A DNA stretch of 64,000 nt from Minisyncoccia bacterium (GTDB taxonomy: Bacteria > Patescibacteriota > Minisyncoccia > Phycocordibacterales > CAJBRS01), in contig JBBQRF010000002.1 of NCBI GenBank assembly GCA_038215155.1, positions 50,712 through 114,711 of the forward strand, in the 5' to 3' direction. Below the pieces are notes generated by a model. That model was not told the DNA's origin, did no database searches, and worked only from the letters and a program-made list of their open reading frames with translations. Shown here in pieces: positions 26,639-55,054 of the stretch. Position numbers and translations under genes: made by a program. Every line of letters begins with the position of its first letter. Within the stretch, counting starts at the first letter, position 1.

Positions 26639-27253
26639 ATGAAAAAATTATCAAGTTTATCGATGTCAGTAAGTGTAGTAATAGTAGCGATCTTTATTAG
26701 CGCATTCTGTAGTTATGTATTGGCGGATTCTTACTCTGCACCCAGTACTAATCCTCCTGGAGGTAATATTTCTGCTCCAATTAACACCTCAGGATCTGGT
26801 CAGATTAAGAGTGGAGGATTAACGGTTAATCTAGGGGGAGGAACTAACGGATTAATAGTAGCTTCAGGGAAGGTAGGAATTGGCACTATTAACCCAGCCC
26901 ATTCAATAGATGTCGTTGCCACTGGTGCTGACGGTATTGTTCAAGCGGTTGGATTTTATTACGCATCCGACTGGAACTTAAAACAAAATATTCTGCCCTT
27001 AAAAGATTCTTTGAATAAGATTACTCAACTGCAAGGAGTTTCTTATAATTGGAAATCAAGCGGAGCACCTGACGTAGGATTAATAGCCCAAGATGTTCAG
27101 AAAGTATACCCTCAATTAGTTACTTCAAATGCCACAGGATTAGCAGTAGATTACGGCCACTTAATCGGACCAATGATTGAAGCGATTAAAACGCAGCAAC
27201 TAGAAATTGATCAATTAAAAGCAGAAATTGAAGCTATAAAAGCTCATCGATAA
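26639..27253 (+). CDS. Secreted protein with a C-terminal intramolecular-chaperone auto-processing domain (peptidase S74 / tail-fibre chaperone-like)
   Basis: SDWNLKQNILPL...VSYNWK...GLIAQDVQKVYPQLV...VDYGHLIGPMIEAIKTQQLEIDQLKAEIEAIKA is the classic phage tail-spike/endosialidase C-terminal chaperone-domain pattern. Confidence 0.65.
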   Translation: MKKLSSLSMSVSVVIVAIFISAFCSYVLADSYSAPSTNPPGGNISAPINTSGSGQIKSGGLTVNLGGGTNGLIVASGKVGIGTINPAHSIDVVATGADGIVQAVGFYYASDWNLKQNILPLKDSLNKITQLQGVSYNWKSSGAPDVGLIAQDVQKVYPQLVTSNATGLAVDYGHLIGPMIEAIKTQQLEIDQLKAEIEAIKAHR

Positions 27254-28104: not shown

Positions 28105-29844
28105 TTGTACATCAATGAAAAACAACTAAAGGAATTTATTTTAGACTCGGGACTCGTAACCCGCAAAGATTTTGACGCTTCAGAAAAAGACGCTAAAGAA
28201 AAGGAAATTAGCATTGGAGAGATCCTAGTTAATAAAGGAAAAATTAATGAAGATGATTTACGGCGAATTCAGGCATATGTTTTAGGTATTCCTTTTGTGG
28301 ATCTTAAAAATCAAAAAGTGGAATTCGAAATTCTCTCTATGATTCCGGAGCCAATTGCCCGAAATCATAACATCGTCGCTTTCAAGGTTACCCCGACAGA
28401 TCTGGAAGTAGCCATGCTAGATACTGACGATTTAAGTGCCATTGAGTTCATAAAAAAGAAAGTGGGACTTCGGATATTACCCCGGCTGACAAATACCGAA
28501 TCTATGAAGGCAGTTCTTCTTCAATACCAAAAATCACTTAAAGCAGATTTCGGTGATTTAATTCAAAAAGAAGCCAGTGCTTTGAATGCTGCAGGTGAAG
28601 GTCAAAGCGAAGCTGATTTAAAAAAGATTGCTCAAGATTTACCCGTCGTTCGTATAGTGGACACTCTTTTAAAACACGCCATTCTTCAAAACTCTTCCGA
28701 CATTCATATTGAACCACAAGAAAACGAAGTGTTAGTGCGTTATCGAATTGACGGTTTACTTCATGACGCTATGGTCTTGCCAAAAAACGCCGGCGCCAGT
28801 ATCACAGCAAGAATTAAAGTGTTATCCAATTTAAAATTGGATGAAAAACGCCTACCTCAAGATGGTCGTTTCAAAATTGACATGAATAACGAGAAAGTTT
28901 CTTTCCGTGTCTCTATCCTACCGACTTATTACGGAGAGAAAACTGTTATGCGTCTTTTACGAGAAAGTGTTTCTGGCTTTACCCTAGAGAGTTTAGGATT
29001 TCATGGCGCCGCTCTGGAGTTAATTCATGAAGGCACTCAATTGGCGACAGGCATGATCTTGACTACTGGTCCTACTGGTTCGGGAAAGACCACCACTCTG
29101 TATACAATTCTGGATATTTTAAATACTCCTGATGTTAATATTTCTACTATTGAGGATCCGGTTGAATATCAAATGAAGCGAATTAATCAAAGTCAGGTGA
29201 AGCCTGAGATAGGCTTCACCTTCTCTAGCGGTTTGCGCTCATTGGTGCGACAAGACCCCGATATTATTATGGTGGGAGAAATTCGTGACAATGAAACGGC
29301 CTCTCTTGCCATTAACGCTGCATTAACTGGTCACTTAGTGCTTTCTACCCTGCACACTAATAGCGCCGCTGGCGCCATTCCGAGACTTTTAGATATGGGG
29401 TCGGAGCCATTTCTTCTTGTCTCCACTCTCAATATTGTAATTGCTCAACGATTGATTCGCCGACTGACTCCGACAAAAGTAAAATATTTTTTATCGAAAG
29501 ATGAATTTAACAGCATTGCCAAAAAAATTAATTTAGATCGAGTACTGAAAGCTCTGAAAGAAGAAAAAATAGTAGAGGCAAATGCTACTTGGGAAAAAAT
29601 TCCATTTTATAAAGCCGTACCTTCTTCTGAATCAGATGACGGATATAAAAGTCGAGTGGGCATTCACGAAGCCTTAAAAGTTACTGCCACTATTAAAGAT
29701 TTAATTATTAAAGGTGCCACGTCTGCCGCTATTGAAGAGCAAGCAAAGAAGGAGGGAATGCTAACCATGATTGAAGACGGGGTCTTTCAATGTGTTCAAG
29801 GTATTACTACTGTTGAGGAGGTCCTGCGAGTGATAACAGAATAA
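28105..29844 (+). CDS. pilB: Type IV pilus/T2SS assembly ATPase (GspE/PilB family)
   Basis: N-terminal GSPII domain, Walker A GPTGSGKTTT, Walker B/Asp box, and His box. Confidence 0.92.
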   Translation: MYINEKQLKEFILDSGLVTRKDFDASEKDAKEKEISIGEILVNKGKINEDDLRRIQAYVLGIPFVDLKNQKVEFEILSMIPEPIARNHNIVAFKVTPTDLEVAMLDTDDLSAIEFIKKKVGLRILPRLTNTESMKAVLLQYQKSLKADFGDLIQKEASALNAAGEGQSEADLKKIAQDLPVVRIVDTLLKHAILQNSSDIHIEPQENEVLVRYRIDGLLHDAMVLPKNAGASITARIKVLSNLKLDEKRLPQDGRFKIDMNNEKVSFRVSILPTYYGEKTVMRLLRESVSGFTLESLGFHGAALELIHEGTQLATGMILTTGPTGSGKTTTLYTILDILNTPDVNISTIEDPVEYQMKRINQSQVKPEIGFTFSSGLRSLVRQDPDIIMVGEIRDNETASLAINAALTGHLVLSTLHTNSAAGAIPRLLDMGSEPFLLVSTLNIVIAQRLIRRLTPTKVKYFLSKDEFNSIAKKINLDRVLKALKEEKIVEANATWEKIPFYKAVPSSESDDGYKSRVGIHEALKVTATIKDLIIKGATSAAIEEQAKKEGMLTMIEDGVFQCVQGITTVEEVLRVITE

Positions 29845-29845
29845 A

Positions 29846-31060
29846 ATGAAATTTAAATACTCCGCCATAAATAAAGATGGGAAGGTCTATCAAGGCGTGA
29901 AGGAGTCACCTGATAAGTTTACTTTTTACCGGGATCTGAAAAAAGATGGAGAACAGATGCTCTGGGTTAAAGAGCAGAATAGTAAAATTCATTTTACGGA
30001 ACATTTCAATATTAGTTTATTCGGTCGAATTAAAGATCGAGACAAGATTAACTTTGCCCAAAATTTATCTGGTATGTTGCAGGCCGGCCTGCCCCTCTCT
30101 CGAGCCCTTTCAGTGCTCGAGAGGCAGACTAAAAACAAGAATCTGAAGGGAACTTACAAGGCATTAAATGTCGCTATCAGCGAAGGAAAAACCTTTCACC
30201 AAGCGATGTCTGAATTCCCAAAAGTATTTAACACACTTTTTGTTTCGATGGTGAAAGCGGGAGAAGAGGGAGGAAACTTATCTGGTTCTTTAAAACAAAT
30301 TGGTCTTCAAACTGAGAAGACCTATCAAATTAAGAAGAAAGTAAAAGGGGCCATGATGTATCCCGGCATCATTGTGGGTGTGATGATTTTAATTGGAGTA
30401 TTGATGATGATTTATGTGGTGCCAAGTCTCACCGCTACTTTTCAAAGTCTTAATTCTCCGCTTCCCGCTAGCACTAAATTCATCATCGGCTTGAGCAATT
30501 TTCTGAAGAATAACTATATTTTGGCGGCACTGATTGTTCTTGTACTTGGTTTTTCCTTTTATTTCATTGCTAAGACAAAAAAAGGAAAGCGCTCAATTGA
30601 TTTTGTATCACTTCACATTCCCGTCATTTCCTCCATCATAAAGGAAACTAATGCTGCTCGCACCACCCGCACCCTCTCTTCACTCCTTAGTTCCGGGGTG
30701 GATCTTGTTTTGGCCACTCAAATTACAGGAGAAGTAATGCAGAATTCTTATTATAAAGATGTTCTCGACCGCGCAGTAAAATATGTGGAAAAAGGGCAAC
30801 CCTTATCTAGCTTATTTTTAGAGAAAGCAAATCTATACCCCGTTTTTGTGGGCGAAATGATAAGTGTAGGGGAAGAAACGGGACGATTGTCTGACATGTT
30901 GCTTCAAATTGCCGATTTTTATGAAGAAGATGTGGAGCAAAAGACTAAAGATATGTCCACTATCATTGAACCTTTTCTGATGGTATTTATTGGAGTGGCT
31001 GTCGGTTTTTTTGCCATTTCCATGATCACTCCTCTTTATTCGGTGATGAATAATATATGA
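29846..31060 (+). CDS. pilC: Type IV pilus/T2SS inner-membrane platform protein (GspF/PilC family)
   Basis: Two GspF repeats, three TM segments, about 400 aa. Immediately follows pilB. Confidence 0.9.
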   Translation: MKFKYSAINKDGKVYQGVKESPDKFTFYRDLKKDGEQMLWVKEQNSKIHFTEHFNISLFGRIKDRDKINFAQNLSGMLQAGLPLSRALSVLERQTKNKNLKGTYKALNVAISEGKTFHQAMSEFPKVFNTLFVSMVKAGEEGGNLSGSLKQIGLQTEKTYQIKKKVKGAMMYPGIIVGVMILIGVLMMIYVVPSLTATFQSLNSPLPASTKFIIGLSNFLKNNYILAALIVLVLGFSFYFIAKTKKGKRSIDFVSLHIPVISSIIKETNAARTTRTLSSLLSSGVDLVLATQITGEVMQNSYYKDVLDRAVKYVEKGQPLSSLFLEKANLYPVFVGEMISVGEETGRLSDMLLQIADFYEEDVEQKTKDMSTIIEPFLMVFIGVAVGFFAISMITPLYSVMNNI

Positions 31061-31512
31061 AAAAAGGTTTTACTCTCATCGAGATAATAGTAGCTATTTT
31101 TATTATCTCCGCCTTGGTGGGAATTAGTTTTAGCTCACTCAATAATTTAAATAATTCATCCGCTCTTGATACGGAAACTAACACAATCCTTTCTATGGTT
31201 GAGCGAGCTCGAGCCCGCACCCTTTCTTCGGAGAATGACATCGAATACGGAATTCACTTTGCTTCTACCACGGCCGTTCTATTTGTGGGGAAAACTTATA
31301 CCGTAGGCTCCTCCACTAACGAGACTGAAACGATTAATTCTAAAGTTAAAGTAAACAGTATTAATTTTAGTAGTGGAGTGAAGGATATTTACTTCTATCG
31401 ATTGAGTGGAAAGCCTAGTGCCACAGGTACGGTAGTTTTTAGTTTAGCTTCTAATAGCTTCAGCACTAAAACTCTAACAGTTTACGCCACCGGAATTAGC
31501 GACATAAAATGA
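31057..31512 (+). CDS. Prepilin-type N-terminal cleavage/methylation domain protein (pseudopilin/minor pilin)
   Basis: MKKGFTLIEIIVAIFII class III signal (G|FTLIE). Confidence 0.85.
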   Translation: MKKGFTLIEIIVAIFIISALVGISFSSLNNLNNSSALDTETNTILSMVERARARTLSSENDIEYGIHFASTTAVLFVGKTYTVGSSTNETETINSKVKVNSINFSSGVKDIYFYRLSGKPSATGTVVFSLASNSFSTKTLTVYATGISDIK

Positions 31513-31997
31513 AAAAAGGATTTTATAAAAAAGGTTTTTCGCTTATAGAAGTTATTGTAGCTAGCTCCATTATTGCTGTTTCTGTAATTAGTATTTTAGC
31601 CGTATACACCACCTTTCTTCGAAATACTTTTGACAACACCGCCTCTCTCCAAGCTTCATATTTAGCTGAAGAAGGAATAGAGGCGGCGAAATCTATGAGA
31701 GATTTTGGCTGGAATCAAAATATTAACCCTTTGACCGTCGGCACTAATTACTATCCATATTTTAATACTGGAGCAAATAAATGGCAGGCTACCTCAAGCT
31801 CCAGTACCATAGACGCGACTTTTACCCGTACTTTTAAAGTGGATAATGCCTATCGAGATGCCAGTGATAATTTAGTTACTTCCGGAACGCTTGATTCCAA
31901 TAGCCGCCTACTAACGGTCAATGTTACTTGGGTTCAGGGCACTAGCACAAAAACTAAAACGCTTCAAACTTATCTCACTAATTTATACAATAATTAA
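31509..31997 (+). CDS. Prepilin-type N-terminal cleavage/methylation domain protein
   Basis: KKGFSLIEVIVASSIIAVS. Confidence 0.85.
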   Translation: MKKGFYKKGFSLIEVIVASSIIAVSVISILAVYTTFLRNTFDNTASLQASYLAEEGIEAAKSMRDFGWNQNINPLTVGTNYYPYFNTGANKWQATSSSSTIDATFTRTFKVDNAYRDASDNLVTSGTLDSNSRLLTVNVTWVQGTSTKTKTLQTYLTNLYNN

Positions 31998-32000: not shown

Positions 32001-32516
32001 ATGCAGAGCCGGTCCACAACAAAAGGGTTTTCTTTAATAGAGATGTTAGTTTACGTTGCCCTACTTAGCATTTTGCTTTTAGTAGTTATTAATAGTGTTA
32101 TTCTAATTATAAACTCATATAGAAATATTAAGACAACGGAAGTGTTGGAAAATGCCGGGTTAACCGCTATGGATAGATTAGAAGCAGAGATTCGAAATGC
32201 AAAAAGCATCGACGCGACAAATAGCGTATTTAATTCAAGTGGCACATCTAGTATTTTGACTCTTAATACTTCCACCACTACGCCAGCGAAGGTGAAATTT
32301 TATGCTACCTCCACTACTTTGGCGGTGGACGAAGACGGAGTATATAGTGGGCCGCTCATTTCCTCCAATGCTCGCCTAAAAACCCTGAGTCTCTGGCTCA
32401 TCAGTACCTCTACTTCACAAGCGGTAAAAATAGAGCTGGAAGTTGAAAGTGGAGTAGGTCCTTCTTATAAATCAGCGAAGTTTTATGACACAGCCATTTT
32501 AAGAGGAAGTTATTAA
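32001..32516 (+). CDS. Prepilin-type N-terminal cleavage/methylation domain protein
   Basis: TKGFSLIEMLVYVALLSILLLV. Confidence 0.85.
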   Translation: MQSRSTTKGFSLIEMLVYVALLSILLLVVINSVILIINSYRNIKTTEVLENAGLTAMDRLEAEIRNAKSIDATNSVFNSSGTSSILTLNTSTTTPAKVKFYATSTTLAVDEDGVYSGPLISSNARLKTLSLWLISTSTSQAVKIELEVESGVGPSYKSAKFYDTAILRGSY

Positions 32517-32520: not shown

Positions 32521-34431
32521 ATGAAATTCATAAAGTCTATAAAGTCTATAAAGTCTATAAAGTCTATAAAGTCTATAAAGAATGGGTATTTTCAGTTTGG
32601 GAAAATAATGACATTACGGACGTTAAAACCTTACGGACGATACAATCAAAATGGCGGACAAGCTATGCTTATTGCGGTGATTTTCTTCTTATTTATTAGC
32701 CTTACTATTATTCTCGGCATTACAGTCCCTGTAGTAAATCACATTAAAGAAGTCACTCTATCGAGCAACTCTAAACAAAGTTATGTTCTTGCTGAAGCAC
32801 TTAATGAGGACGCTTACTATCGACTCAATCACAATAAAAATCTCTCTAGCACTTTCAGTCTTTCTTTAAATGGCGCCTCTTCTACCGCCACTGTCACCAC
32901 TAGCGGCCCCAATAAACAAGTTTTCTCTGTAGGATTGGATAATAAAATTAGTCGCTCCGTCAGTACTACTTTTAATCAAGGAGCAGGAGTTTCTTTTAAT
33001 TACGGAGTCCAGGCAGGACAGGGAGGATTCATTTTAAATGGTGGATCCAGAGTAAATGGAAATGTTTATGCAAATGGAGACATCGTAGCCACGAACGGAG
33101 TAGTTATTACCGGCTCTGCTGTCGCCGCTAATAGTGTGGCTCTCTCAGCCGATCAGGTTAATAATTCTCCGAGCACTCCATCAAGCTCCATAAATTTTCG
33201 TGATTCTGCTACCACTCAGGACCTTGCACAGAGTTTTCAAGTTTCCACTTCCACTCCGATCAATAAAGTTCAATTTTATTTGAAGAAAACAGGAAGCCCC
33301 GCTGATGCCACGGTTAAAATTGTCAGTGATAGCAGTGGTTCACCTTCTACCAACGATTTATTTCTCTTGGCGCCTAGTGGCAGCGACGGCACTCTCTTAA
33401 GTTCTCAAGTTGGAACTACTTATACTTGGGTAAATGTAGTTTTTCCCACAAACATTTCTCTTACGGCCGGCACTACGTATTGGTTAGTAATTGATAATGG
33501 TGCTAATAACGCTAGTAATTACTACACTATAGGAGCAAACAGTAATGGCTATGCAAATGGAGTAGGGAGGAATGGAAAATACAGCGGCACTTGGAATGCC
33601 TCAAGCGGACTAGATGCCTACTTTCAGATTTATTTAGGAGGATTGACTTCTACTATTGGTGGAAACACTTATGTGGGAGGAGTGAATGTAGGTACCGGTT
33701 CGGTGGGCGACGCCTGGGCCCATGATGTAGAAGGAGCCAGTGTGGCTGGCACTATTTATTGCCAAATAGGTAATCATAATAATAAAACTTGCGATACCTC
33801 TCGAGGAGACCCCTCTCCAGTAGGCCTTCCTGTTTCAGATGCCAATATTCTCCAATGGAAAACAGATGCGGCCGGCGGCACCATTATTAATGGAAATGTC
33901 ACCATTGGCTTTGCTGGAACGACGACTGGTCCTACAAAAATTAATGGCAATCTTACTATTAACGGCGGAGGCACTCTTACTTTGACAGGAGGGGTGTGGG
34001 TAACAGGAAATATCACTGTCTCCAATGGCGCTAAGGTCACCCTATCTCCATCATATGGAGCAAGCAGTGGAATTTTACTCTCCGATGGATGGATAAATTT
34101 AACCGGAGGGGGAGCGTTGAGCGGTTCGGGCACCACGGGCAGTTATTTAATGGTTCTTACGACTAGCGCCTGTCCCAACAGCGGCAATTGTAGTGGCTCC
34201 CCGAGCAATAACGCCCTCACAGTTACTGGGGGTGCGGGAGCGGTGGTAGTAAATGCTCAGAATGGCACCCTGGAACTTAGTGGAGGTTCAGGTCTCAAAG
34301 AAGCCACAGCCAATCTAATTGTAGATACTGGGGGAGCCACCCTCACTTACGATAGCGGTCTAGCTAATCAGAATTTTGTTAGCGGTCCATCTGGAGCTTG
34401 GAATGTAGCAAGTTGGCAGGAGGTGCCGTAG
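32521..34431 (+). CDS. Large pilus-associated protein (PilX/PilY1-like tip or adhesin candidate). TM anchor, then Gly/Thr/Asn-rich beta-helix-like repeats. The true start is possibly at 32605 (MTLRTLK) or 32662 (MLIAVIFF).
   Basis: Follows three pseudopilin genes. TM helix LIAVIFFLFISLTIILGI. Repeats such as INGNLTINGGGTLTLTGGVWVTGNITVSNGAKVTL. Confidence 0.6.
   Translation: MKFIKSIKSIKSIKSIKSIKNGYFQFGKIMTLRTLKPYGRYNQNGGQAMLIAVIFFLFISLTIILGITVPVVNHIKEVTLSSNSKQSYVLAEALNEDAYYRLNHNKNLSSTFSLSLNGASSTATVTTSGPNKQVFSVGLDNKISRSVSTTFNQGAGVSFNYGVQAGQGGFILNGGSRVNGNVYANGDIVATNGVVITGSAVAANSVALSADQVNNSPSTPSSSINFRDSATTQDLAQSFQVSTSTPINKVQFYLKKTGSPADATVKIVSDSSGSPSTNDLFLLAPSGSDGTLLSSQVGTTYTWVNVVFPTNISLTAGTTYWLVIDNGANNASNYYTIGANSNGYANGVGRNGKYSGTWNASSGLDAYFQIYLGGLTSTIGGNTYVGGVNVGTGSVGDAWAHDVEGASVAGTIYCQIGNHNNKTCDTSRGDPSPVGLPVSDANILQWKTDAAGGTIINGNVTIGFAGTTTGPTKINGNLTINGGGTLTLTGGVWVTGNITVSNGAKVTLSPSYGASSGILLSDGWINLTGGGALSGSGTTGSYLMVLTTSACPNSGNCSGSPSNNALTVTGGAGAVVVNAQNGTLELSGGSGLKEATANLIVDTGGATLTYDSGLANQNFVSGPSGAWNVASWQEVP
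32530..32580 (+). repeat. Perfect tandem repeat (ATAAAGTCT) x5.7
   Basis: ataaagtct repeated five times plus ataaag. It lies at the annotated 5' end (IKS x5) of the large pilus gene, or in its leader if translation starts at M29 or M48. Confidence 0.95.
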
Positions 34432-43619: not shown

Positions 43620-44027
43620 ATGGCAACAATCAATCAGCTAGTTCGACGAAAAAGAGTCCATCCAATCCGCAAGACAAAGGCGGTTGCTTTAACTCGTACC
43701 TTTAACACCCTAAAAAATCGTCCTGGCTATAATCCTTCTCCATTTAAGCGAGGGGTCTGCACTAAAGTCACCACCAAAACTCCAAAGAAGCCTAACTCTG
43801 CTATTCGAAAAATTGCTCGTGTTCGATTAACTAATGGTCTAGAAGTAACTGCCTACATTCCCGGAGAAGGTCACAATCTACAAGAACACTCCGTTGTATT
43901 ACTTCGATCTGGAAAAGTTAAAGATATTGGCGTGCGATACACTATCGTCCGCGGTGTTCTTGATGCTCAAGGAGTAGAGAAGCGACGAAAGGTCAGAAGT
44001 ATGTACGGAGCTAAAAAGCCTAAATAA
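43620..44027 (+). CDS. rpsL: 30S ribosomal protein S12
   Basis: [11 protein letters not shown]...PKKPNSA... Confidence 0.97.
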
Positions 44028-44040
44028 TTAGAAAGAATCA

Positions 44041-44511
44041 ATGCGACGAAAAGTAAAAAATAGAAATAAAGTTGGACCAGAAGCTACTTACGACTCCGAA
44101 AAAGTAGCTAAGTTTATTAATTACTGCATGGAACGAGGAAAGAAAAATGCTGCCCGCAAGATTGTTTACAGTGCCTTCGAAGTAATTAAAGAAAAGAACA
44201 AAACTGATAACCCAATGGAAGTTTTTGACACTGCTCTCAAGAACACCGCTCCTCAGATGGAAGTGCGTTCTCGCCGAGTCGGAGGAGCAAATTACCAAGT
44301 ACCTCGAGAAGTGCGCCCAGAAAGACGCCAAGAGCTTTCAATGAAATGGATCATTTTGGCTGCCAAGGGTAAAAAAGGTCAGCCCATGCATGTAAAATTA
44401 GCCGATGAGATTATCGCGGCATCAAAAAATGAAGGAGAAGCGGTGAAGAAACGCGAAAATACTCACAAAATGGCCGAATCAAACAAGGCCTTTGCCCACT
44501 TTGCTTGGTAA
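44041..44511 (+). CDS. rpsG: 30S ribosomal protein S7
   Basis: Canonical S7 sequence in the str operon position. Confidence 0.97.
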   Translation: MRRKVKNRNKVGPEATYDSEKVAKFINYCMERGKKNAARKIVYSAFEVIKEKNKTDNPMEVFDTALKNTAPQMEVRSRRVGGANYQVPREVRPERRQELSMKWIILAAKGKKGQPMHVKLADEIIAASKNEGEAVKKRENTHKMAESNKAFAHFAW

Positions 44512-44592
44512 TTATTTTTTGCGCATTTAATTAAATCATGTTATTTTTATTTGGCGACTCGCCGAGTCGTTTTTTAATCGAAATTAAGAAAA

Positions 44593-46734
44593 ATGAACAG
44601 AGACTATCCACTAGAACGCGTCCGTAACTTCGGAATCATTGCCCATATTGATGCCGGAAAAACTACCACTTCCGAGCGTATTCTCTATTACACCGGAGAG
44701 TCACATAAAATTGGAGAAGTACACGAAGGTAACACTACTACTGACTGGATGGAACAAGAGCGAGAGCGAGGCATTACTATTACCGCCGCCGCTATTACCT
44801 GTTTCTGGAACCCAACTTACATGGGAACAGATACATCACTGAAACAACGTTTTAATATTATTGATACCCCAGGTCACATTGACTTCACTGCTGAAGTAAA
44901 GCGCTCACTTCGAGTGTTAGACGGTGCCGTAGTCGTTTTCGACGGAGTAGCGGGTGTGGAACCTCAATCAGAAACTAACTGGCGATATGCTGATGATGGA
45001 AATGTGCCAAGAATTTGTTTCATTAATAAACTAGACCGCTTAGGCGGTAGTTTTGAACGATCATTTCAATCAATTCTAGATCGTCTGACTAAAAATGCCG
45101 TTCGAATGCAAATTCCTATGGGGGCAGAGGATAAATTTGAAGGAGTAATCGATCTTCTGAAAATGAAGGCCTATTATTTTGAAGGAACAATGGGAATTGA
45201 TATTCGTGAGGCAGAAATTCCGGCGGAGTATTTAGAAGAAGCAAAAAAATATCGCCATGACTTAGTAGAAAAAATTGTTGAGCAAGATGATCAAATGATG
45301 CACAACTATTTAGAAGGGAAGGAAGCATCAATTGAAGATTTGAAAAAAACCTTACGAAAAGCCACTCTTGAATTAAAAATTATTCCAGTTTTTAGTGGAT
45401 CTGCTTTAAAAAACAAAGGAGTTCAGTTGGTTTTGGATGCAGTGGTGGATTACCTGCCAAGCCCTTTAGATATTCCTCCTGTTACAGGACTCGATCCAAA
45501 AACAGGTGAAAAAATAAGTCGAAACCCATCGGACGAAGAACCTTTTGCCGCCCTGGCCTTCAAACTTCAGTCTGACCCATTCGTCGGGCAACTGACTTTC
45601 TTTCGAGTTTATTCCGGAACGATTGAAGCGGGCTCATATATTTATAATGCAACCACTGGGGACAAAGAGCGCCTCGGCCGTATTGTCCGTCTGCAAGCAG
45701 ACAAACGAGAAGAAGTGAAAAAAGTTTTTGCTGGAGAAATTGCGGCCGCTGTAGGTTTAAAAACTGCTAGAACTTCTCATACTTTTTGTGATGAGAAAAA
45801 CCCAATTATTCTAGACCCAATTAAATTCGTGGAACCAGTGGTGTCCTTGCGCATCGAACCAAAAACTAAAGCCGATCAAGAAAAAATGGGTATGGCCATG
45901 AAGAAGTTACAAGACGAAGACCCTACCTTTAAAGTTAGCTCAAATACTGAGACGATGGAAACTATCATTTCCGGTATGGGTGAGCTCCACCTTGAAATTA
46001 TGATTGACCGCATGAAAAGGGAATTCGGCGTTGAAGCCAATGTGGGCCAGCCGCAGGTAGCTTACAGAGAAACTATTACCGGAACTGCTGAGGCAGAACA
46101 CAAATACATCAAACAATCTGGAGGAAAAGGACAATACGGACACGTCAAGATCACTCTTAAACCGATGGAGCCAGTAGATCCTGAAAAGAAGGTTCCTAAA
46201 AACGTTAGTCGTTATAGCGATTTTGAATTTATAAACAATATTAAGGGAGGAGTTATTCCAATTGAGTTTATTCCAGCGGTAGAAAAAGGAGTGCGAGAAG
46301 CTATGACTCGCGGTATTGTGGCTGGCTTTCCGATGGTAAATGTCTCTTGTGATCTTACCTATGGTTCTTATCACGACGTCGACTCTTCAGAAATTGCTTA
46401 CAAGATTGCCGCTTCACAAGCTTTTCAAGATGGAGCTAAACGTGCTCGACCAGTTATTCTCGAGCCTATTATGAAATTAGAAATAGTAGTGCCGGAAAAA
46501 TTCATGGGCGATATTACCGGTAATCTTAATTCTAAACGCGCTCAGATTGAAGGCATGGAAGATAGGGGAATGTTGAAAGTCATCCGGGCTCAGGTGCCTC
46601 TATCAGAAATGTTTGGCTATGTGACTTCACTGCGTTCGATGACTGAAGGACGAGGAAGCGCCAACATGGAATTTGATCATTATGATATTGTTCCACCTCA
46701 GGTAGAGAAATCTATTGTAGAAGCAAGGAAATAA
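44593..46734 (+). CDS. fusA: Elongation factor G
   Basis: [15 protein letters not shown]...DTPGHIDF... Confidence 0.98.
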
Positions 46735-46740
46735 AGAGAA

Positions 46741-46768
46741 GATGGGGCCGCGAAGCGGCCCCATCTTA
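46741..46768 (+). terminator. GC-rich hairpin after fusA (terminator/attenuator, weak U-tract)
   Basis: gatggggccgcgaagcggccccatc. Confidence 0.45.
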
Positions 46769-46937
46769 CTAAATTCGTTTGACTTCTTTTTTAACTTTGT
46801 TATCATTCCTCTTACACGTTTTGTTAATTCCCTACGGGGTTTTGACTCTAAACGAGGGATAATTATGTTTGCAGACTCTGAAGAGGTGCAGACAGATTTA
46901 AATATTAATAGAAAATTATAATTAACTAATAAAATAT

Positions 46938-48143
46938 ATGGCAGAGACTTTTGATAGATCAAAACCTCACGTCAACGTTGGAACTATTGGTCACGTTGAC
47001 CACGGAAAGACCACTACTACCGCCGCTATTCTTCACGTCCTTGGAAATCTCGGAAAGGACAAAGGTTATAGCGCTCGAGTAGAAAATGTAGATGGTATTG
47101 ATAATGCTCCTGAAGAGAAGGCCCGAGGAATTACTATTGCCCTTCACCATTCTGAATACGAGACTCCAAACCGTCACTACGCTCACATTGACGCCCCTGG
47201 TCACGCCGATTACATCAAGAACATGATTACTGGAGCGGCTCAAATGGACGGCGCTATTCTTGTAGTAGCTGCTACCGATGGAGCTATGCCCCAAACTCGC
47301 GAGCACGTACTCTTGGCTAAACAAGTTGGAGTGCCTAAGATGATCGTTTATCTAAATAAGTGCGACATGGTAGATGATAAGGATTTGATTGACCTAGTGG
47401 AAGCAGAAATTCGAGAACTTCTTACTAAGAATGATTTCGATGGAGATAATGCTCCTGTTATCCGAGGTTCTTCTATTAAAGCCCTTGAAGCTAAAAGCAT
47501 TGATGATGAAAGTGCTAAGCCAATTGTAGATCTTATCAACGCTTTGGACACCTACATCCCAACTCCTATCAGAGAAATTGAAAAGCCTTTCCTTATGCCC
47601 GTAGAAGACATCTTCTCTATTGAAGGCCGAGGAACTGTAGTTACAGGGAGAATTGAGAGAGGAAAGGTAAAGGTAGGTGAAGAAATAGAAATCATCGGAC
47701 TTCACCCTACTACCAAGACCACTATTACTGGAATTGAAATGTTCAATAAATCTTTGGCTGAAGGTCTTGCTGGAGATAATGCTGGAATCTTACTCCGAGG
47801 TACTAAAAAGGAAGACGTACATCGTGGTCAAGTTTTAGCAAAGAGTGGTTCTGTCACTCCTCACACTGAATTTGAAGCTGAAGTCTACATTTTGAAGAAA
47901 GAAGAAGGTGGCCGACATACTCCATTCTTTACTGGATACAAACCTCAGTTCTACATTCGAACTACTGACGTAACTGGAGAAGTAACTCTAAATGAAGGAG
48001 TAGAAATGGTTATGCCGGGAGACACTGTTACTTTCAAAGTAAAATTGGTTGCACCGGTTGCTCTTGAAGAAAAACAACGCTTCGCTATTCGAGAAGGTGG
48101 AAAGACAGTGGGCGCTGGAGTAGTTACTAAGATTACCGCGTAG
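46938..48143 (+). CDS. tuf: Elongation factor Tu
   Basis: [18 protein letters not shown]...DAPGHADY... Confidence 0.98.
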
Positions 48144-48235
48144 AAGTCCATAAAGTTTTTAAAGTCCTTAAAGTTATTCTTGTCGCAAGACAAAAAACTT
48201 TAAGGACGTTGAAAACACTAAGGACCTTATAGCCT
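48144..48235. repeat. Palindromic intergenic element of the GTCC(W)TAAAG family in the tuf-rpsJ spacer
   Basis: aagtccataaagtttttaaagtccttaaagtt...aactttaaggacgt inverted repeat with a central ttgtcgcaagacaa hairpin. Confidence 0.7.
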
Positions 48236-48676
48236 ATGAGTGAAACAACTAAAAAAACAAAAACTACCACTTCAAAAGCGAAGACACCTCGAGCTACTAA
48301 AACAGGCGGCGCCTCTAAAGGTCGCGCCACAGCTCCCAAAACTGCGGCCGTTAAAGCGGCCGCAGAAGGTATCTCAAAATTGCGCATTCGAGTACGAGCT
48401 TACGAATCCAAAATACTTGATCAATCAGTTAAGCAAATTATGGACACCGCTCTTCGATATGACGCTACAGTTTTGGGTCCCATTCCTCTCCCAACTGAAA
48501 TTAAAAAATACACGGTGAATCGCTCCGCTTTCGTTTACAAAAACGCCAGAGAGCAGTTTGAGATGAGAGTTCATAAGCGTTTGCTTGACATAGTAAATCC
48601 TACCGCTAAAGTGGTGGAGGCCCTCACTAATTTGAGCTTACCAAGTGGAGTCAGTATTGATGTAAAAATGATTTAA
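48236..48676 (+). CDS. rpsJ: 30S ribosomal protein S10 with an ~45-aa Lys/Thr/Ala-rich N-terminal extension
   Basis: RIRVRAYESKILD...conserved S10 core. No alternative ATG between the annotated start and the core. Confidence 0.9.
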   Translation: MSETTKKTKTTTSKAKTPRATKTGGASKGRATAPKTAAVKAAAEGISKLRIRVRAYESKILDQSVKQIMDTALRYDATVLGPIPLPTEIKKYTVNRSAFVYKNAREQFEMRVHKRLLDIVNPTAKVVEALTNLSLPSGVSIDVKMI

Positions 48677-48677
48677 G

Positions 48678-49295
48678 ATGAAATTTATTTTAGGAACAAA
48701 ACAGAAAATGACTCAGGTTTTTGATGAGAGTGGCAAGGTTTATCCTGTTACGGTCATTAAAACTGCAGGCATGGTTGTTTCTCAAATAAAGACTAAAGAA
48801 AAAGATGGGTATGAGGCAGTGCAAGTCGGAATGGGTGAGAGAAGAGAGAAAAGAATAAAAAAAGCCCAGAAAGGCCACCTAAAAGATTTGGGCAACCTTC
48901 GACACATTAAAGAATTTAGAATTTCCTCCGCTGAATCATCAGAAATGAAAAGAGGGGCGAAAATCACCTCGGCGATTTTCGCCCCCGGCGACAAAGTCAC
49001 AGTTTCCGCTACTTCTAAAGGAAAAGGTTTCCAGGGAGTGGTTAAGCGACACGGTTTCCATGGCGGTCCGAGAAGTCATGGTCAAAAGCACTCAGAGCGC
49101 GAGGCTGGTTCTATCGGCACCGCTGGTTACCAGCGAGTTTTTAAAGGACGCCGGATGGCCGGACGTATGGGTGGCGACCGGGTCACTGTTAAGAATCTGG
49201 AAGTTATTAACGTAGATTCTGAAAAAGAAGAAATTTTAATAAAAGGAGCCATTCCCGGCACTCGCGGCACCTTAGTAGAAATCGTGGCAAAATAA
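48678..49295 (+). CDS. rplC: 50S ribosomal protein L3
   Basis: Canonical L3 (GKGFQGVVKRHGF). Confidence 0.96.
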   Translation: MKFILGTKQKMTQVFDESGKVYPVTVIKTAGMVVSQIKTKEKDGYEAVQVGMGERREKRIKKAQKGHLKDLGNLRHIKEFRISSAESSEMKRGAKITSAIFAPGDKVTVSATSKGKGFQGVVKRHGFHGGPRSHGQKHSEREAGSIGTAGYQRVFKGRRMAGRMGGDRVTVKNLEVINVDSEKEEILIKGAIPGTRGTLVEIVAK

Positions 49296-49296
49296 A

Positions 49297-49929
49297 ATGG
49301 AAGCAAAAATTTACAATCAACAAGGTAAAGAAGCGGGCAACATAAATTTGCCAGAAACTGTTTTCGGTTTGCCTTGGAATGCTGATCTTGTTCACCAAGT
49401 CACTACTTCCATCCAAAATAATCAACGGAACGCCTGGGCACATACTAAAGATCGAGGCGATGTATCTGGAGGAGGAAAAAAACCTTGGAAACAGAAAGGC
49501 ACCGGACGCGCCCGTCACGGCTCTACCCGTTCTCCTATTTGGGTTGGTGGAGGAGTAGCTCATGGTCCAAAAAAAGCCAAGAACTACAAGAAGAAAATCA
49601 ACAAAAAAATGCGAGCTAAAGCACTCTACACAGTTATTTCTAAAAAATTTAAGGAAGGCGAGATAATTTTTGTGGAAAATCTTAACTTTACCGTTCCAAA
49701 GACTAAAGACGCTAAAGCAGTTCTTAGCTCACTAAAAGTGAATCGCTCTGCTTACATTGCGCTTTCAAGCAAGGATGCAAACGTCAAAAAGAGTTTCAAT
49801 AATTTCGGCAATCTGATGGTAGACGAAGTTCGCAACCTTAACGTCCTTGATGTTATGAATCACAAGTTTCTAGTCATCACCAATCCCAGCGAGTCGGTGA
49901 AGTTCATAGAAAGTAAGATGCAAAAATAA
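49297..49929 (+). CDS. rplD: 50S ribosomal protein L4
   Basis: KPWKQKGTGRARHGS. Confidence 0.96.
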   Translation: MEAKIYNQQGKEAGNINLPETVFGLPWNADLVHQVTTSIQNNQRNAWAHTKDRGDVSGGGKKPWKQKGTGRARHGSTRSPIWVGGGVAHGPKKAKNYKKKINKKMRAKALYTVISKKFKEGEIIFVENLNFTVPKTKDAKAVLSSLKVNRSAYIALSSKDANVKKSFNNFGNLMVDEVRNLNVLDVMNHKFLVITNPSESVKFIESKMQK

Positions 49930-49930
49930 T

Positions 49931-50215
49931 ATGGCAAATCATTTACACAATAGTATGGCTATTCTTCGACCCCGCGTTACTGAAAAGGCGAGCTTAGTTA
50001 ATAGTGCCAATGTCTATACTTTTGAAATTGCTGAAACGGCTACTAAAAAAGATGTCTCTCGAGAGATTAGGGATGTTTACAAGGTCAATCCTATTGCTGT
50101 TAATATTGCCCGCACTCCAAGAAAAACTGTCACCCAGAAAGGTATTAAGGGCCGTACAAAAGGGGTTAAGAAAGCTTATGTTTATTTAAAAGCAGGAGAT
50201 CGTATTGAAATTTAA
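49931..50215 (+). CDS. rplW: 50S ribosomal protein L23
   Basis: [11 protein letters not shown]... Confidence 0.95.
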
Positions 50216-50217
50216 TC

Positions 50218-51060
50218 ATGAAGTCCTACAAACCCACATCCCCATCACGCCGACAAATGAGCCACGTTAGCTATCGTGGAGTTTTTAACGCTACGGAGCC
50301 AGAGAAGTCTTTAACCAAAGGCTTTAAGCGCGCAGTGGGAAGAAACAATCAAGGCCGCATCACTACTCGACACAAAGGATCTGGTCACAAGCGACTTTAT
50401 CGCGAAGTGGATTTTACTTTTAATAAAAAAGATATTCCAGCTAAAATCACTACCATTGAATACGATCCTAACCGTTCCGGATTTATCTCTCTTTTAGTTT
50501 ATGCTGATGGTGAAAAGCGTTACACTCTCTTACCCAAGTCATTAAAAGTAGGAGACACTATTTTAATCTCTGAAAAAGCCGAAGTAAAAGCAGGGAATCG
50601 CTTGCCACTACGAAATATTCCTGTCGGAACTTTTATTTACAATGTAGAAGTAAAGCCAGGTTCGGGCGCCGTCCTTTCTCGAGCTGCTGGCAACTATGCT
50701 GAAGTAATTGCTCAAGACGAAGGATATTCTCAGGTGAAATTACCATCCACCGAAGTACGAAAAATTAAAGACAGCGCCTGGGCTTCTATCGGAGAAGTTT
50801 CTAATGATGAAAATCGGCTGCAAAATTTCGGCAAGGCAGGGCGTTCTCGTTGGAAAGGTATTCGACCAACCGTTCGAGGAACCGCTATGAACCCCGTTGA
50901 TCACCCACACGGAGGAGGAGAAGGAAAGCAAGGCCGAGGAACTCGCCGAGCTAAAAGTATTTACGGTAAGCCAACTGGAAAAGGCCAGAAATCCCGCCGG
51001 GCTAAAAAATACTCAAATCGCATGATTGTCTCCCGCCGAAAAGTAGGAAAGAAGCGGTAA
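50218..51060 (+). CDS. rplB: 50S ribosomal protein L2
   Basis: RNIPVGT..., [13 protein letters not shown]. Confidence 0.97.
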
Positions 51061-51074
51061 TTCAGCATTTTAAT

Positions 51075-51130
51075 TTGACAGCATCTCCCTTTCTGCTAGT
51101 ATGTTTTAAGCCGCCAGGGGCGGCATTTTC
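51075..51130 (+). promoter_or_regulatory. Putative internal promoter (-35 TTGACA, 16-nt spacer, -10 TAGTAT) followed by a GC hairpin and U-tract (attenuator-like leader) upstream of rpsS
   Basis: tttgacagcatctccctttctgctagtatg, then gccgccaggggcggcatttt. This is an 89-bp gap in an otherwise abutting operon. Confidence 0.4.
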
Positions 51131-51149
51131 AGTCAAAAAATAAGATTAA

Positions 51150-51509
51150 ATGACACGATCACTCAAAAAAGGTCCATTTGTGGACGCCAAATTATTAAAG
51201 AAGATTAGTGGAAAAAAGCCAGGAGAATCGGCGGTTGTTAAAACTTGGGCACGCCGCAGCGATATTAGTCCAGAAATGATCGGCTTTACTTTTGGAGTTC
51301 ACAATGGAAAGCAGCATTTAGAAGTCTTTGTTACAGAAGAAATGGTTGGCCACAAGCTAGGGGAATTTTCTCCTACTAAGAAATTCTTAAGACACGGAGG
51401 AAAGATGCAGAAGGAACAGGAGGCTGCCGCAAAAGAGGCGGAAATTAATGCCGCTAAGTCAGCACGCGCGGCGGCGGACGGCGCCACAAATAAGGCCCCC
51501 GCTAAATAA
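51150..51509 (+). CDS. rpsS: 30S ribosomal protein S19 with an ~27-aa Ala/Lys-rich C-terminal extension
   Basis: [10 protein letters not shown]...[13 protein letters not shown]... Confidence 0.95.
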
Positions 51510-51518
51510 TTTTTATAT

Positions 51519-51842
51519 ATGAAAGCAGCCCTTAAAACTTACAGACAATCACCTCGAAAAGTCCGCCTCGTTGCAGACTTGATTAGAGGCAAGAAAACCA
51601 GCGACGCGCTGGTGACTTTGCAGTTTGCCAATAAGAGAGCGGCGGTAGAACTGACTAAATTACTGAAAAGTGCAATCGCTAACGCTAAAAATCTAGACGC
51701 AGATGAAAGCAAGCTCTACATCAAGGAAATTCAAGTAAATAAAGGCGTTACTTTGAAACGTATAATGCCTCGCGCTCGTGGTTCTGCCTCTGCTATTAAT
51801 AAGCGCACCAGCCACGTTACCATTTCACTAGCAACTAAATAA
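51519..51842 (+). CDS. rplV: 50S ribosomal protein L22
   Basis: Canonical L22. Confidence 0.95.
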   Translation: MKAALKTYRQSPRKVRLVADLIRGKKTSDALVTLQFANKRAAVELTKLLKSAIANAKNLDADESKLYIKEIQVNKGVTLKRIMPRARGSASAINKRTSHVTISLATK

Positions 51843-51843
51843 C

Positions 51844-52518: not shown

Positions 52519-52523
52519 TTACC

Positions 52524-52943
52524 ATGCTATATCCTAAAAAAGTAAAACATCGAAAATGGCAAACTGGCCGAGTTAATTCCAAAAAGACGGTAGTGGAAAC
52601 GCGCGGCATCACTCTTTCCTTTGGATCATTTGGCTTAAAAGCTACATCTGCATCCCGAGTGCGCTCTAATCAAATTGAATCAGCCCGCAAGGTCTTGGCT
52701 CGTTCCGTAAGCAAGGTAGGGAAGATTTGGATTCGCATATTTCCCGACCGACCATATACTGCTAAACCAGCAGAGGTGGGAATGGGAAAGGGTAAAGGGG
52801 ATCTCCAGGGCTATGAATTCCAAGTTTGGCCTGGACGCATTTTATTTGAAATTGACGGGGTGGAAGAAAGTGTTGCCCGAGAGGCATTACGAAAGGCTGC
52901 TACAAAATTACCGGTTAAGACAAGAATTGTTAGTCGGGTATAA
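52524..52943 (+). CDS. rplP: 50S ribosomal protein L16
   Basis: MLYPKKVKHRK. Confidence 0.96.
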   Translation: MLYPKKVKHRKWQTGRVNSKKTVVETRGITLSFGSFGLKATSASRVRSNQIESARKVLARSVSKVGKIWIRIFPDRPYTAKPAEVGMGKGKGDLQGYEFQVWPGRILFEIDGVEESVAREALRKAATKLPVKTRIVSRV

Positions 52944-52957
52944 AAACCATAGTTAAA

Positions 52958-53161: not shown

Positions 53162-53168
53162 AATCATC

Positions 53169-53429: not shown

Positions 53430-53430
53430 T

Positions 53431-54212: not shown

Positions 54213-54239
54213 TTTTAGAGGGATTCTCAGAAGAAAAAT

Positions 54240-54776: not shown

Positions 54777-54777
54777 T

Positions 54778-54838: not shown

Positions 54839-54849
54839 ATTTTTTAATT

Positions 54850-55035: not shown

Positions 55036-55054
55036 TCATAATATCCTAAGCAAA

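Follow-up and report, generated by a model that had tools for sequence, protein, structure and literature searches.

The perfect 9-nt tandem repeat (ATAAAGTCT)x5.7 at positions 32530-32580 of a Paceibacterota genome stretch of 64,000 nt (the window, + strand) is the 5' arm of an imperfect palindrome of about 114 nt (32527-32640), which directly follows the third pseudopilin gene of a type IV pilus-like operon. On balance, and with roughly even confidence, we read this palindrome as one copy of a dispersed element that is inserted at operon junctions, and the tract as a by-product of the element rather than as a phase or antigenic switch.

Tandem Repeats Finder returns the tract as the top-scoring array of the window (period 9, 5.7 copies, 100% matches, 0 indels, score 102, consensus ATAAAGTCT), and direct reading of the letters agrees, which confirms, for the deposited sequence, the unit, the copy number and the perfection of the array as given by an earlier, sequence-only reading of this DNA. 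The tract begins 14 nt past the stop codon of the third pseudopilin gene (32001-32516, + strand; N-terminal methylation motif, Pfam N_methyl E = 6.6e-07, TIGR02532), and thus directly 3' of that gene, as had also been stated. The earlier assignment of the unit to a GTCYATAAAG-type repeat family within the window likewise stands. Six runs of at least three units (at most one mismatch each) at exact 9-nt spacing were counted in the window, where 200 second-order Markov simulations predict 0.005. Lone copies of ATAAAGTCT with at most one mismatch are not enriched there (32 found, 27.7 expected), so that the repeat signal resides in the tandem arrangement.

The 5' arm of the palindrome (32527-32580, + strand) consists, in a position-weight-matrix scan, of six forward nonamers, TTCATAAAG followed by five copies of TCTATAAAG. 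It is followed by a 29-nt spacer or 'loop' (32581-32609), the 3' end of which overlaps a candidate start codon (ATG 32608-32610, M30), and by a 3' arm of about three reverse nonamers (GACATTACGGACGTTAAAACCTTACGGACG; 32610-32640), which lies within the coding sequence and was recognized by its match to the arms of sister elements. The scan thus gives six '+' and then three '-' matches, the '+++---' layout that the sister elements also have. The forward units are of the type YYRTAAAG, and the roughly three units of the partner arm have diverged. This partner arm is missing from the earlier reading. Across the window, its best match is the 3' arm of the element at the L14/L24 junction (26/30 identical), with a score of 35, which is above every shuffle (null maximum 27), and the next best is the element at the EF-Tu/S10 junction. 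Because the fold of the element on the mRNA strand is no better than that of shuffled sequences (z = -0.2 to +0.6), the copy at the pilus junction is regarded as a degenerate palindrome, and a hairpin in the mRNA was rejected for this junction; the minus strand of the element folds at -24.3 kcal/mol (z = -3.1). In scans of the window, curated Rfam families gave only tRNAs at gathering score, and permissive settings added only sub-threshold noise of microRNA-hairpin, snoRNA and sRNA type. TIGR arrays are composed of two alternating 8-12-nt repeats with variable 9-nt spacers and a period of ~36 nt, and adjoin a Nop-domain Tas gene (PMC12045711); this identity was rejected here, where the units are contiguous and identical, lack variable spacers and have pilus genes as neighbours.

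At least four '+++---' nonamer clusters were found by the position-weight-matrix scan in the 64-kb window. The sister elements, all given in + strand coordinates, occupy the EF-Tu/S10 junction (48146-48233; -33.0 kcal/mol, z = -6.9; inverted repeat I2), the L14/L24 junction (53807-53901; -25.0 kcal/mol, z = -3.2, and on the minus strand -39.2 kcal/mol, z = -5.1) and the S8/L6 junction (55449-55524; -21.1 kcal/mol, z = -4.8), and the flanking genes of the EF-Tu/S10 and S8/L6 elements were confirmed. All three are clearly more stable than their shuffled versions. The spacers between the arms differ from copy to copy. Stop-codon-like triplets are doubled at the ends of the sister elements (TAG...TAG, TAAATAAT...TAAATAAT on the two sides of the L14/L24 element, and TAA...TAA); these duplications are short and AT-rich, and nothing comparable flanks the copy at the pilus junction.

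In relatives, the corresponding junctions are empty. None of the four junctions in GCA_035652395.1 and none of the three examined in GCA_017881075.1 contains an element, and nonamer runs are absent from the relatives' sequences. The EF-Tu/S10 junction measures 92 nt in the window versus 10 and 8 nt in the relatives (L005/L006 and L007, respectively), the L14/L24 junction 107 versus 12 and 2 nt, and the S8/L6 junction 89 versus 38 and 4 nt, while the gap between the pseudopilin stop and the following ATG is 1 nt in L003. With relatives' junctions of only 1-38 nt, the elements are best explained as lineage-specific insertions. Among 67 orthologous junctions, the pseudopilin stop and the membrane helix of the next protein are separated by a median distance of 37 nt (5-95%: 18-79); in the window, they are 133 nt apart.

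The gene downstream of the tract encodes a choice-of-anchor-R / PilX-like pilus-associated protein and is annotated at 32608-34431 (+ strand; 607 aa, NCBI gene call P0001); its longest ORF (32521-34431, 636 aa) includes the tract, and the NCBIfam choice_anch_R domain covers residues 187-335. Among 1016 homologs, those listed as best are mostly 570-645 aa long and cover 91-97% of the 636-aa ORF. The exact 636-aa product has no record in a protein look-up, the protein cluster has one member, and the right flank of the tract gave 0 matches in JGI metagenomes. The ORF opens with an ATG (32521-32523, M1) that lies 4 nt past the pseudopilin stop, the upstream edge of the junction, and is in frame through the whole element. 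This ATG is probably the ancestral start codon, as comparison with the L003 ortholog suggests, whose start lies 1 nt past the equivalent pseudopilin stop (TAATATGAGAATT versus TAAAATTATGAAATTC); every start among the cistrons of the operon lies at most 4 nt from the preceding stop. The start region of ATG 32521 folds at -5.2 kcal/mol, inside the range of 43 reference starts, and both folding and AU content are normal for M1 and M30 and not for M49.

Upstream of the conserved GGQAM motif, the only in-frame ATG, GTG or TTG codons are those at 32521 and 32608. Since G17 is invariant and A19 nearly so among 30 homologs, translation must begin upstream of 32655, and because only ATG 32521 or ATG 32608 can then start the protein, at least the 3' arm of the element is translated. 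The element falls within translated sequence and leaves the frame unbroken, as an in-frame palindromic insertion would. The alternative offered by the sequence-only reading, a translated IKS tract or an untranslated leader, therefore holds, as both ATGs are possible starts; the internal methionines it placed at M29 and M48 are in fact M30 (ATG 32608) and M49 (ATG 32665). Across the element, stop codons are missing from two of the three frames, and the openness of the ORF is accordingly weak evidence for translation from M1. Homology between the leader that starts at M30 and that of L003 was considered and rejected: only M, K and G coincide, and the 26/30 match to the sister arm is preferred. 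The stretch encoded by the tract is Lys-rich and strongly basic and precedes the sole membrane helix of the protein, for which reasons the repeat-encoded leader is likely to be cytoplasmic; the leaders of homologs are short and unconserved.

In the model that we favour, the elements would have been inserted, lineage by lineage, into the stop/start junctions of tightly coupled operons, and the five identical units would reflect recent replication slippage within one arm of the pilus-junction copy. Here, the element would directly follow the codon at which the choice-of-anchor-R/PilX-like gene probably started ancestrally and be carried in frame, so that the gene stays intact. Ribosomes that end the pseudopilin gene could reinitiate at ATG 32521, 4 nt further on, in which case the element would be translated in its entirety into a leader rich in Lys, MKF(IKS)5IKNGYFQFGKI..., that precedes the membrane helix; alternatively, initiation could take place at ATG 32608, in the spacer of the element. 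By either route, a change of 9 nt would be frame-neutral and would alter only the length of the leader or spacer, which is why the tract is regarded as a by-product, presumably nearly neutral, and not as a switch. The degenerate fold, the short AT-rich flanking duplications and their absence from the pilus-junction copy, the conserved array of L358 and L370 described below, the frequency of permuted 9-mers in viral contigs, the position of elements 3-14 nt before starts and a bias towards ribosomal genes were counted against insertion. In the 64 kb covered, no transposase or other mobilizing gene came to light either.

Similar nonamer hairpins occur in many Patescibacteria, ahead of genes for ribosomal proteins and other core machinery, and in one case (L037) within a 16S rRNA gene; an rRNA spacer also holds such a hairpin. 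This distribution, including the 16S rRNA gene of L037, fits an insertional element. At the Patescibacteria loci, the element ends 3-14 nt before the downstream start and begins 0-25 nt after the upstream stop. The downstream genes in other genomes encode S7 (twice), S12, L35, S20 (twice), L2, L16 and L22, as well as SecY, AtpA, AtpF, IF-2, GroEL and a pilin; with S10, L24 and L6 of the window counted, ribosomal proteins make up 12 of the 24 downstream genes identified by Pfam. The window hinted at a general antisense folding bias, which 14 co-directional elements from other genomes do not confirm (no consistent sense or antisense preference, 6 versus 6). In viral contigs, the real unit was found at 44 loci versus 89 and 48 for permuted control 9-mers, so tandem AT-rich 9-mers as such are not special, and the only feature set apart by the controls is the inverted-arm architecture (21/138 versus 0/190). 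The idea of a cross-phylum 'family' based on the unit sequence was toned down after these controls, and we rely on the inverted-arm architecture instead; the long arrays with a single arm in Bacteroidota and Ignavibacteria may have arisen by slippage, with no relation to these elements. Searches of the literature on palindromic, MITE or tandem repeats in Patescibacteria gave nothing relevant and no description of nonamer hairpins, and searches with nonamer-dimer strings gave two chance matches only (a primer/gene sequence and a C. difficile spacer hairpin). It is tentatively suggested that the elements represent an undescribed class of nonamer-built palindromes of Patescibacteria that invade, or persist in, stop/start junctions of operons for ribosomal proteins and other core machinery as well as rRNA genes, and that can be translated in frame into protein leaders; they would be either a new type of mobile element that lacks a known transposase or a Shine-Dalgarno-independent intercistronic device for translation or RNA processing.

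A related reading, which we consider rather unlikely, sees the nonamer array or hairpin as a selected cis-acting translation signal of operons that do without Shine-Dalgarno sequences, in the form of an A/U-rich leader or of a stop-to-start 'coupling hairpin' before the starts of highly expressed genes, with the tandem units tuning initiation of the downstream cistron (here that of the pilus-associated protein). A Shine-Dalgarno motif is indeed missing upstream of 35 starts in the window, half of the identified downstream genes are ribosomal, and the 31-codon ORF of the L14/L24 element (53813-53908) stops 1 nt before the ATG of L24. Across 80 orthologous loci (362,552 nt), the two-unit pattern occurs four times and always at the pseudopilin/anchor-R junction, where the short nonamer array is 37/41 identical (90%) between L358 and L370, above the 63% and 75% identity of the flanking coding DNA. 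The reverse units also contain AACUUUA, which we take to be the core of the 'epsilon' translational enhancer of phage T7 gene 10. Against this, the closest relatives express the same genes from element-free junctions, a translation signal would be senseless inside a 16S rRNA gene or an rRNA spacer, one-sided arrays point either way with respect to the gene that follows (5 versus 3), folding shows no consistent sense or antisense bias (6 versus 6), and at the pilus junction the reverse arm follows, rather than precedes, the only downstream candidate start. The closeness of the elements to stops and starts is uninformative, because anything inserted into a junction of 2-12 nt adjoins both.

The tract had originally been described as a 'classic contingency-locus architecture', in which slipped-strand changes in unit number switch, grade or vary a surface-exposed pilus component. 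Five perfect copies would point to recent, and probably ongoing, slippage, the choice-of-anchor-R gene is large and pilus-associated, and it is conceivable that unit number has a graded effect on the distance from the pseudopilin stop to ATG 32608 or on the length of the leader, much as expression of the Haemophilus hmw genes is graded by 7-bp repeats in front of them. That description is nevertheless not supported: a 9-nt unit preserves the frame, as the same reading had correctly noted, and cannot shift it; the same architecture precedes S10, L24 and L6, and related copies lie in rRNA genes of other genomes. A scan with a sigma-70-like consensus found three sites in 1 kb (2.8 expected), none of them flanking the tract, and no -35/-10 pair at the tract itself, on which ground a promoter reading was rejected. 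The proposed surface-exposed variable segment is a Lys-rich stretch before the membrane helix and would be cytoplasmic or part of a leader, a region that homologs do not conserve. In addition, the one orthologous pair of near-identical genomes with an array of 4-5 units has kept the unit number. An on/off or antigenic switch of the pilus protein is hence not supported, and we consider a contingency locus of any kind very improbable. Still less credible is that the copy number, or the tract itself, arose from short-read mis-assembly. Short tandem repeats can be shortened or lengthened when MAGs are assembled, and the Logan assembly of run SRR19962015 breaks exactly in the tract, with L001 ending and L002 beginning inside the repeat; such a break is expected if, as we assume, this assembly is a k=31 graph. 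Both contig ends carry more than three units each, attached to the correct unique flanks, which establishes that the repeat is present in this independent assembly, the tract, at 51 nt, does not reach the length of the large k-mers with which metagenome assemblers usually work, and the sister elements and the arrays in other genomes argue that the architecture is biological.

As a dispersed and probably inserted palindrome, the element resembles several known systems. The REP/BIME sequences of enterobacteria are dispersed, short, imperfect and hairpin-forming palindromes between operon cistrons that are present or absent at orthologous junctions; the window elements share the dispersal, the palindromic form, the intercistronic position and the presence/absence pattern, and differ in arms made of tandem 9-nt units, in variable spacers, in their Patescibacteria host and in abutting start codons, with one copy lying in a coding leader; no REP-associated transposase (RAYT) was found in the 64 kb covered. 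Rickettsia palindromic elements (RPEs) are in-frame insertions in protein and RNA genes that are read as extra peptide. Compared by description, the pilus element is similar in that at least its 3' arm is translated and in that the 16S rRNA gene of another genome contains a related copy; RPEs are not known to consist of short tandem units or to occur outside Rickettsia. Intervening sequences (IVS) and other insertions in rRNA genes have been reported, including in 16S genes of the candidate phyla radiation, and the hairpin-forming extra segments in the 16S rRNA gene of L037, a related element in a genome other than that of the window, are comparable. With SSR contingency loci, such as the tetranucleotide tracts of Haemophilus and Neisseria and the hmw repeats, the tract shares perfect tandem repetition of a short unit where a gene for a surface structure begins, but its unit is a multiple of three, no promoter-like sequences surround it, the peptide it encodes is probably not exposed at the surface and copies accompany housekeeping genes. 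TAACTGA heptamers, in the parts of the source consulted, are direct repeats a few nt upstream of starts in Beggiatoaceae, Cyanobacteria and Bacteroidetes, with a patchy distribution across phyla, shorter and repeat-free junctions in close relatives and a proposed role in translational regulation (PMC4679880). The tandem units near starts and their absence from the shorter junctions of relatives are common to both, whereas the TAACTGA units are 7 nt long and nearly all direct (one indirect repeat is reported in BOGUAY), unlike the paired inverted 9-nt arms of the window, and a bias towards ribosomal-protein genes is seen for elements of the window type and is not mentioned there for the heptamers (PMC4679880).

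These results remove a tempting but unsupported claim that a pilus gene undergoes phase variation in an uncultured lineage of episymbionts. Given how compact the genomes of the candidate phyla radiation are, palindromes of ~100 nt in ribosomal-operon junctions of 2-12 nt, and in a 16S rRNA gene, are unexpected. If the elements are mobile, they would be a rare case of repeat proliferation in reduced genomes, and one that makes assemblies break. A functional role would matter for the way in which consecutive cistrons are translated where Shine-Dalgarno sequences are not used, and, should the elements act as an intercistronic device, the output of the pilus gene would be tuned by the number of units in front of it. 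For annotation, the deposited start of the choice-of-anchor-R gene may be placed 29 codons too far downstream, in which case the protein would carry a leader encoded by the repeat.

The tract lies in a forward-strand pilus operon that encodes a PilB-type ATPase (28105-29844), a PilC/GspF-type platform protein (29846-31060), three N_methyl pseudopilins (31057-31512, 31509-31997 and 32001-32516) and, in the ORF with the tract, a large choice-of-anchor-R protein (32521-34431), each cistron starting at most 4 nt from the preceding stop. The large protein has more than 1000 homologs, chiefly in Candidatus Paceibacterota and called PilX-like in some sources; the best-listed ones, mostly 570-645 aa in length, align over 91-97% of the 636-aa ORF. 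This marks the source as a Paceibacterota (Parcubacteria, candidate phyla radiation) MAG. No Shine-Dalgarno motif is found upstream of the start codons of 35 window genes (e.g. 29846, 34473 and 43620-59464), and operons in the window are packed, with stop-to-start gaps of 0-12 nt. Just upstream of the pilus operon, 26639-27253 encodes a Peptidase_S74 domain protein (204 aa) that is conserved in the pilus locus of the closest relative (L003, 4042-4665); this domain is the ‘chaperone of endosialidase’ familiar from phage tail spikes.

As the sequence-only reading had it, the repeat is perfect and preserves the frame: TRF reports 5.7 copies of ATAAAGTCT, free of mismatches and indels, at 32530-32580 (score 102, the top array of the window), and the 9-nt unit is a multiple of three. 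Lone copies of the 9-mer are not enriched in the window (32 versus 27.7 expected); runs of at least three units at exact 9-nt spacing number 6, against 0.005 expected from second-order Markov simulations. In the Logan assembly of SRR19962015 the tract is joined to both unique flanks and contigs break inside it, so that this independent assembly backs the presence of the repeat rather than its exact unit count, and we regard an assembly artefact as highly improbable.

A position-weight scan of the window with the nonamer revealed four clusters that share one layout, namely forward units, a spacer and reverse units. One of them (32527-32637) contains the tract, and the other three are sister elements that fill the EF-Tu/S10 (48147-48233; fold -33.0 kcal/mol, z = -6.9 against shuffles), L14/L24 (53807-53900; -25.0 kcal/mol, z = -3.2) and S8/L6 (55461-55520; -21.1 kcal/mol, z = -4.8) junctions. 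The 3' arm at 32610-32640 (GACATTACGGACGTTAAAACCTTACGGACG) has the L14/L24 3' arm as its top match in the window (26/30, score 35 versus a null maximum of 27) and the EF-Tu/S10 element as its second best, and because it matches these sister arms the element extends over about 32527-32640. It is a degenerate copy of the palindrome, whose mRNA strand is no more stably folded than shuffles (z = -0.2), whose minus strand folds at -24.3 kcal/mol (z = -3.1), and whose arms are unequal, with six units, five of them identical, on the 5' side and about three diverged units on the 3' side. Neighbouring units are never identical in the sister arms, and the simplest reading would be that one arm recently expanded by slippage. 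Within the L14/L24 element, a 31-codon ORF (53813-53908; MSLKSIMSIKSK...TLQTLKTLGTLKTK) begins 10 nt past the L14 stop, ends 1 nt ahead of the L24 ATG and runs in the relative frame that is also open in the pilus element (TLRTLK... and IKS..., respectively).

The same gene order is found in two relatives, GCA_035652395.1 (large protein 63% identical, S3 91%) and GCA_017881075.1 (S3 87%), and no nonamer runs occur in their loci compared. The EF-Tu/S10 junction measures 10 and 8 nt in these relatives and 92 nt in the window, the L14/L24 junction 12 and 2 nt versus 107 nt, and the S8/L6 junction 38 and 4 nt versus 89 nt; between the third pseudopilin and the large gene, 1 nt in GCA_035652395.1 corresponds to 4 nt (to ATG 32521, M1) or 91 nt (to ATG 32608, M30). 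Across 67 orthologous metagenome junctions, the pseudopilin stop and the membrane helix are a median of 37 nt apart (5-95%: 18-79), compared with 133 nt in the window. Duplicated stop-codon-like strings (TAG/TAG, TAAATAAT/TAAATAAT and TAA/TAA) border the sister elements; they are suggestive of target duplication but short and AT-rich. From these comparisons, the nonamer elements of the window appear to be insertions. In another Paceibacterota lineage (L004, 3033-3200), the gene for the ortholog (P0017, 641 aa) carries about 170 additional nt at the same pilus junction, among them a mini-palindrome of one unit (TTAAAGTTTTATTTAAAACTTTAA) that is included in the called gene.

How much of the pilus element is translated depends on the start codon. 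Homolog N-termini have a short basic leader, then G-(Q/A)-A-M and then a hydrophobic helix, with G17 invariant and A19 nearly so in 30 homologs, and the only in-frame ATG, GTG or TTG codons upstream of this motif are M1 and M30. In 119 homologs the helix is preceded by a median of 11 leader residues (5-95%: 0-19; maximum 59); the window protein would have 43, 14 or 0 of them from M1, M30 or M49 (ATG 32665). M30 is the start in the NCBI call (P0001, 607 aa); M1 is in frame with the large gene, 4 nt past the pseudopilin stop, matching the ortholog start position in the closest relative (stop/start junction TAATATGAGAATT in L003 versus TAAAATTATGAAATTC in the window). Compared with 43 reference starts (-4.0 +/- 2.9 kcal/mol, AU 0.76), the start regions of M1 (-5.2 kcal/mol, AU 0.80) and M30 (-6.2 kcal/mol, AU 0.75) are normal and that of M49 is poorer (-8.2 kcal/mol, AU 0.55). 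Both options proposed earlier, a translated IKS tract or a leader, thus remain, with M1 or M30 as the start, whereas the second internal start, ATG 32665, drops conserved residues and is set aside. We lean slightly towards M1, which a terminating ribosome would reach before M30; openness alone is little proof, as two of three frames lack stops throughout the element. With either start at least the 3' arm is translated, and the element is probably an in-frame insertion in the 5' end of the large gene.

A scan for three consecutive units, with each species represented by one genome, returned at least 120 loci, whose genes are ORF-based calls. Many of the matches listed are from Patescibacteria (Taylor-, Roizman-, Magasaniki-, Nomura-, Berkel-, Gottesman-, Campbell- and Staskawiczbacteria, Paceibacterota, Saccharibacteria and Gracilibacteria), and many others from Bacteroidota and Ignavibacteria. 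In viral contigs the real pattern gave 44 loci and two permuted patterns 89 and 48, so AT-rich 9-mer tandem arrays are common per se. The specific feature is instead the inverted-arm architecture, seen in 21/138 arrays among the genome matches listed, mostly in Patescibacteria, versus 0/45, 0/93 and 0/52 in the viral sets. Units vary chiefly at the YR before TAAAG (TA 29%, CA 24%, TG 20% and CG 7% among the matches listed). Bacteroidota and Ignavibacteria MAGs (L013, L024, L025, L030, L040, L074, L083, L084 and others) carry one-sided GTTYRTAAA arrays of up to 17 units, often at contig ends and beside other 7-8-nt tandem repeats; the exact ATAAAGTCT unit is present in L074 (Rikenellaceae), and these long arrays may be unrelated to the hairpin elements.

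At co-directional Patescibacteria loci among the matches listed, hairpin elements occupy the entire junction, their edges 0-25 nt from the upstream stop and 3-14 nt from the downstream start. The downstream genes listed encode S7 (twice), S12, L35, S20 (twice), L2, L16, L22, SecY, ATP synthase alpha and b, IF-2, GroEL, a pilin, PrgI, an RsmI-like methylase, ComM, a HIT protein and one unknown; together with S10, L24, L6 and the anchor-R gene of the window, 12/24 are ribosomal-protein genes, a class estimated at a few percent of Patescibacteria genomes. In a Magasanikiibacteriota MAG (L037), a 16S gene, where the bacterial SSU model matches 1864-3705 (1842 nt for a 1533-nt model), contains two hairpin elements (3144-3216 and 3538-3606), and a third (4187-4243) is in the spacer before a tRNA. 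Two near-identical genomes from different lakes share an orthologous element with 8-nt units (TTATAAAG; L049 4574-4661 and L058 6762-6841), and over about 200 nt they differ solely by two substitutions within the array.

We give about an even chance to a reading in which a dispersed, nonamer-built palindrome would insert at a gene junction, slippage would recently have lengthened one arm, and the 5' end of the large gene would carry the palindrome in frame, with unit gain or loss leaving that frame intact. A less probable, tentative alternative is that the element is under selection as a device for translation or cistron coupling that works independently of Shine-Dalgarno sequences. The position of the elements at junctions, the bias toward highly expressed genes and the short ORF bridging the L14/L24 element speak for it, whereas hairpin copies in rRNA genes, junctions that are empty in relatives, mixed orientations and the absence of strand bias (6 versus 6) speak against it. 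This functional reading is kept alive by an array that is more conserved than its flanks: a two-unit nonamer pattern occurs 4 times across 80 orthologous loci (362,552 nt), each time precisely in the gap separating the third-pseudopilin stop from the anchor-R start, as a one-sided 41-nt array in other Paceibacterota lineages (about 1940-1980 in the equivalent L358, L367 and L374, about 1931-1971 in L370). Its L358 and L370 versions are 37/41 identical (90%), with flanking coding DNA at 63% and 75%, which hints at constraint or repeated acquisition.

The sequence-only reading saw a contingency locus, in which unit-number change would drive phase or antigenic variation of a pilus component. The tract is perfect, as such a locus would have it, and unit number may grade expression, but the unit length is divisible by three, the flanks show no promoter-like hexamers, and the repeat-encoded Lys-rich stretch ahead of the sole membrane helix would be cytoplasmic under the positive-inside rule, in a leader that is unconserved among homologs. 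Moreover, the same repeats precede housekeeping genes in the window and lie within an rRNA gene elsewhere (L037), and unit number is the same in the single near-identical genome pair with an orthologous array (L049/L058). We therefore consider such variation quite improbable.

In its way of working, the nonamer element is closest to REP/BIME or MITE-type palindromes, and it resembles Rickettsia palindromic elements in being translated. No mobilising enzyme was identified in the 64 kb of this genome analysed. TAACTGA heptamer repeats (PMC4679880) are alike in their short tandem units just upstream of starts and their patchy phyletic spread. A TIGR array (PMC12045711) was rejected as the identity of the tract. 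No Rfam family matches the nonamer element, and searches by nonamer-dimer strings or keywords, with most subscription journals outside their scope, returned no description of it, which is no proof of novelty.

Three further regions of the window deserve mention. A degenerate forward nonamer-like run at 57053-57099 (GTCTTAAAG, TGGTCAAG, TCCTAAAAG, CCCTAAAG) begins within the 3' end of ORF 56461-57075 (by synteny with L005, a locus of a relative, the S5 gene), reaches toward ATG 57100 (L15 by synteny) and may be a decayed member of the family. At 9384-9925, 540 nt without ORFs or an Rfam family at gathering score hold long inverted repeats (9385-9473 and 9409-9556) and several ATGTCCTTTA(C/G) motifs (9604-9624 and about 9699). 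Directly after a 928-aa DUF8128/TraG-like gene, an inverted repeat at 63053-63162 (36-nt arms, 81% complementary, 38-nt spacer), within which Logan contig L129 ends, has GTCCTAAGACTTT-type strings resembling nonamers.
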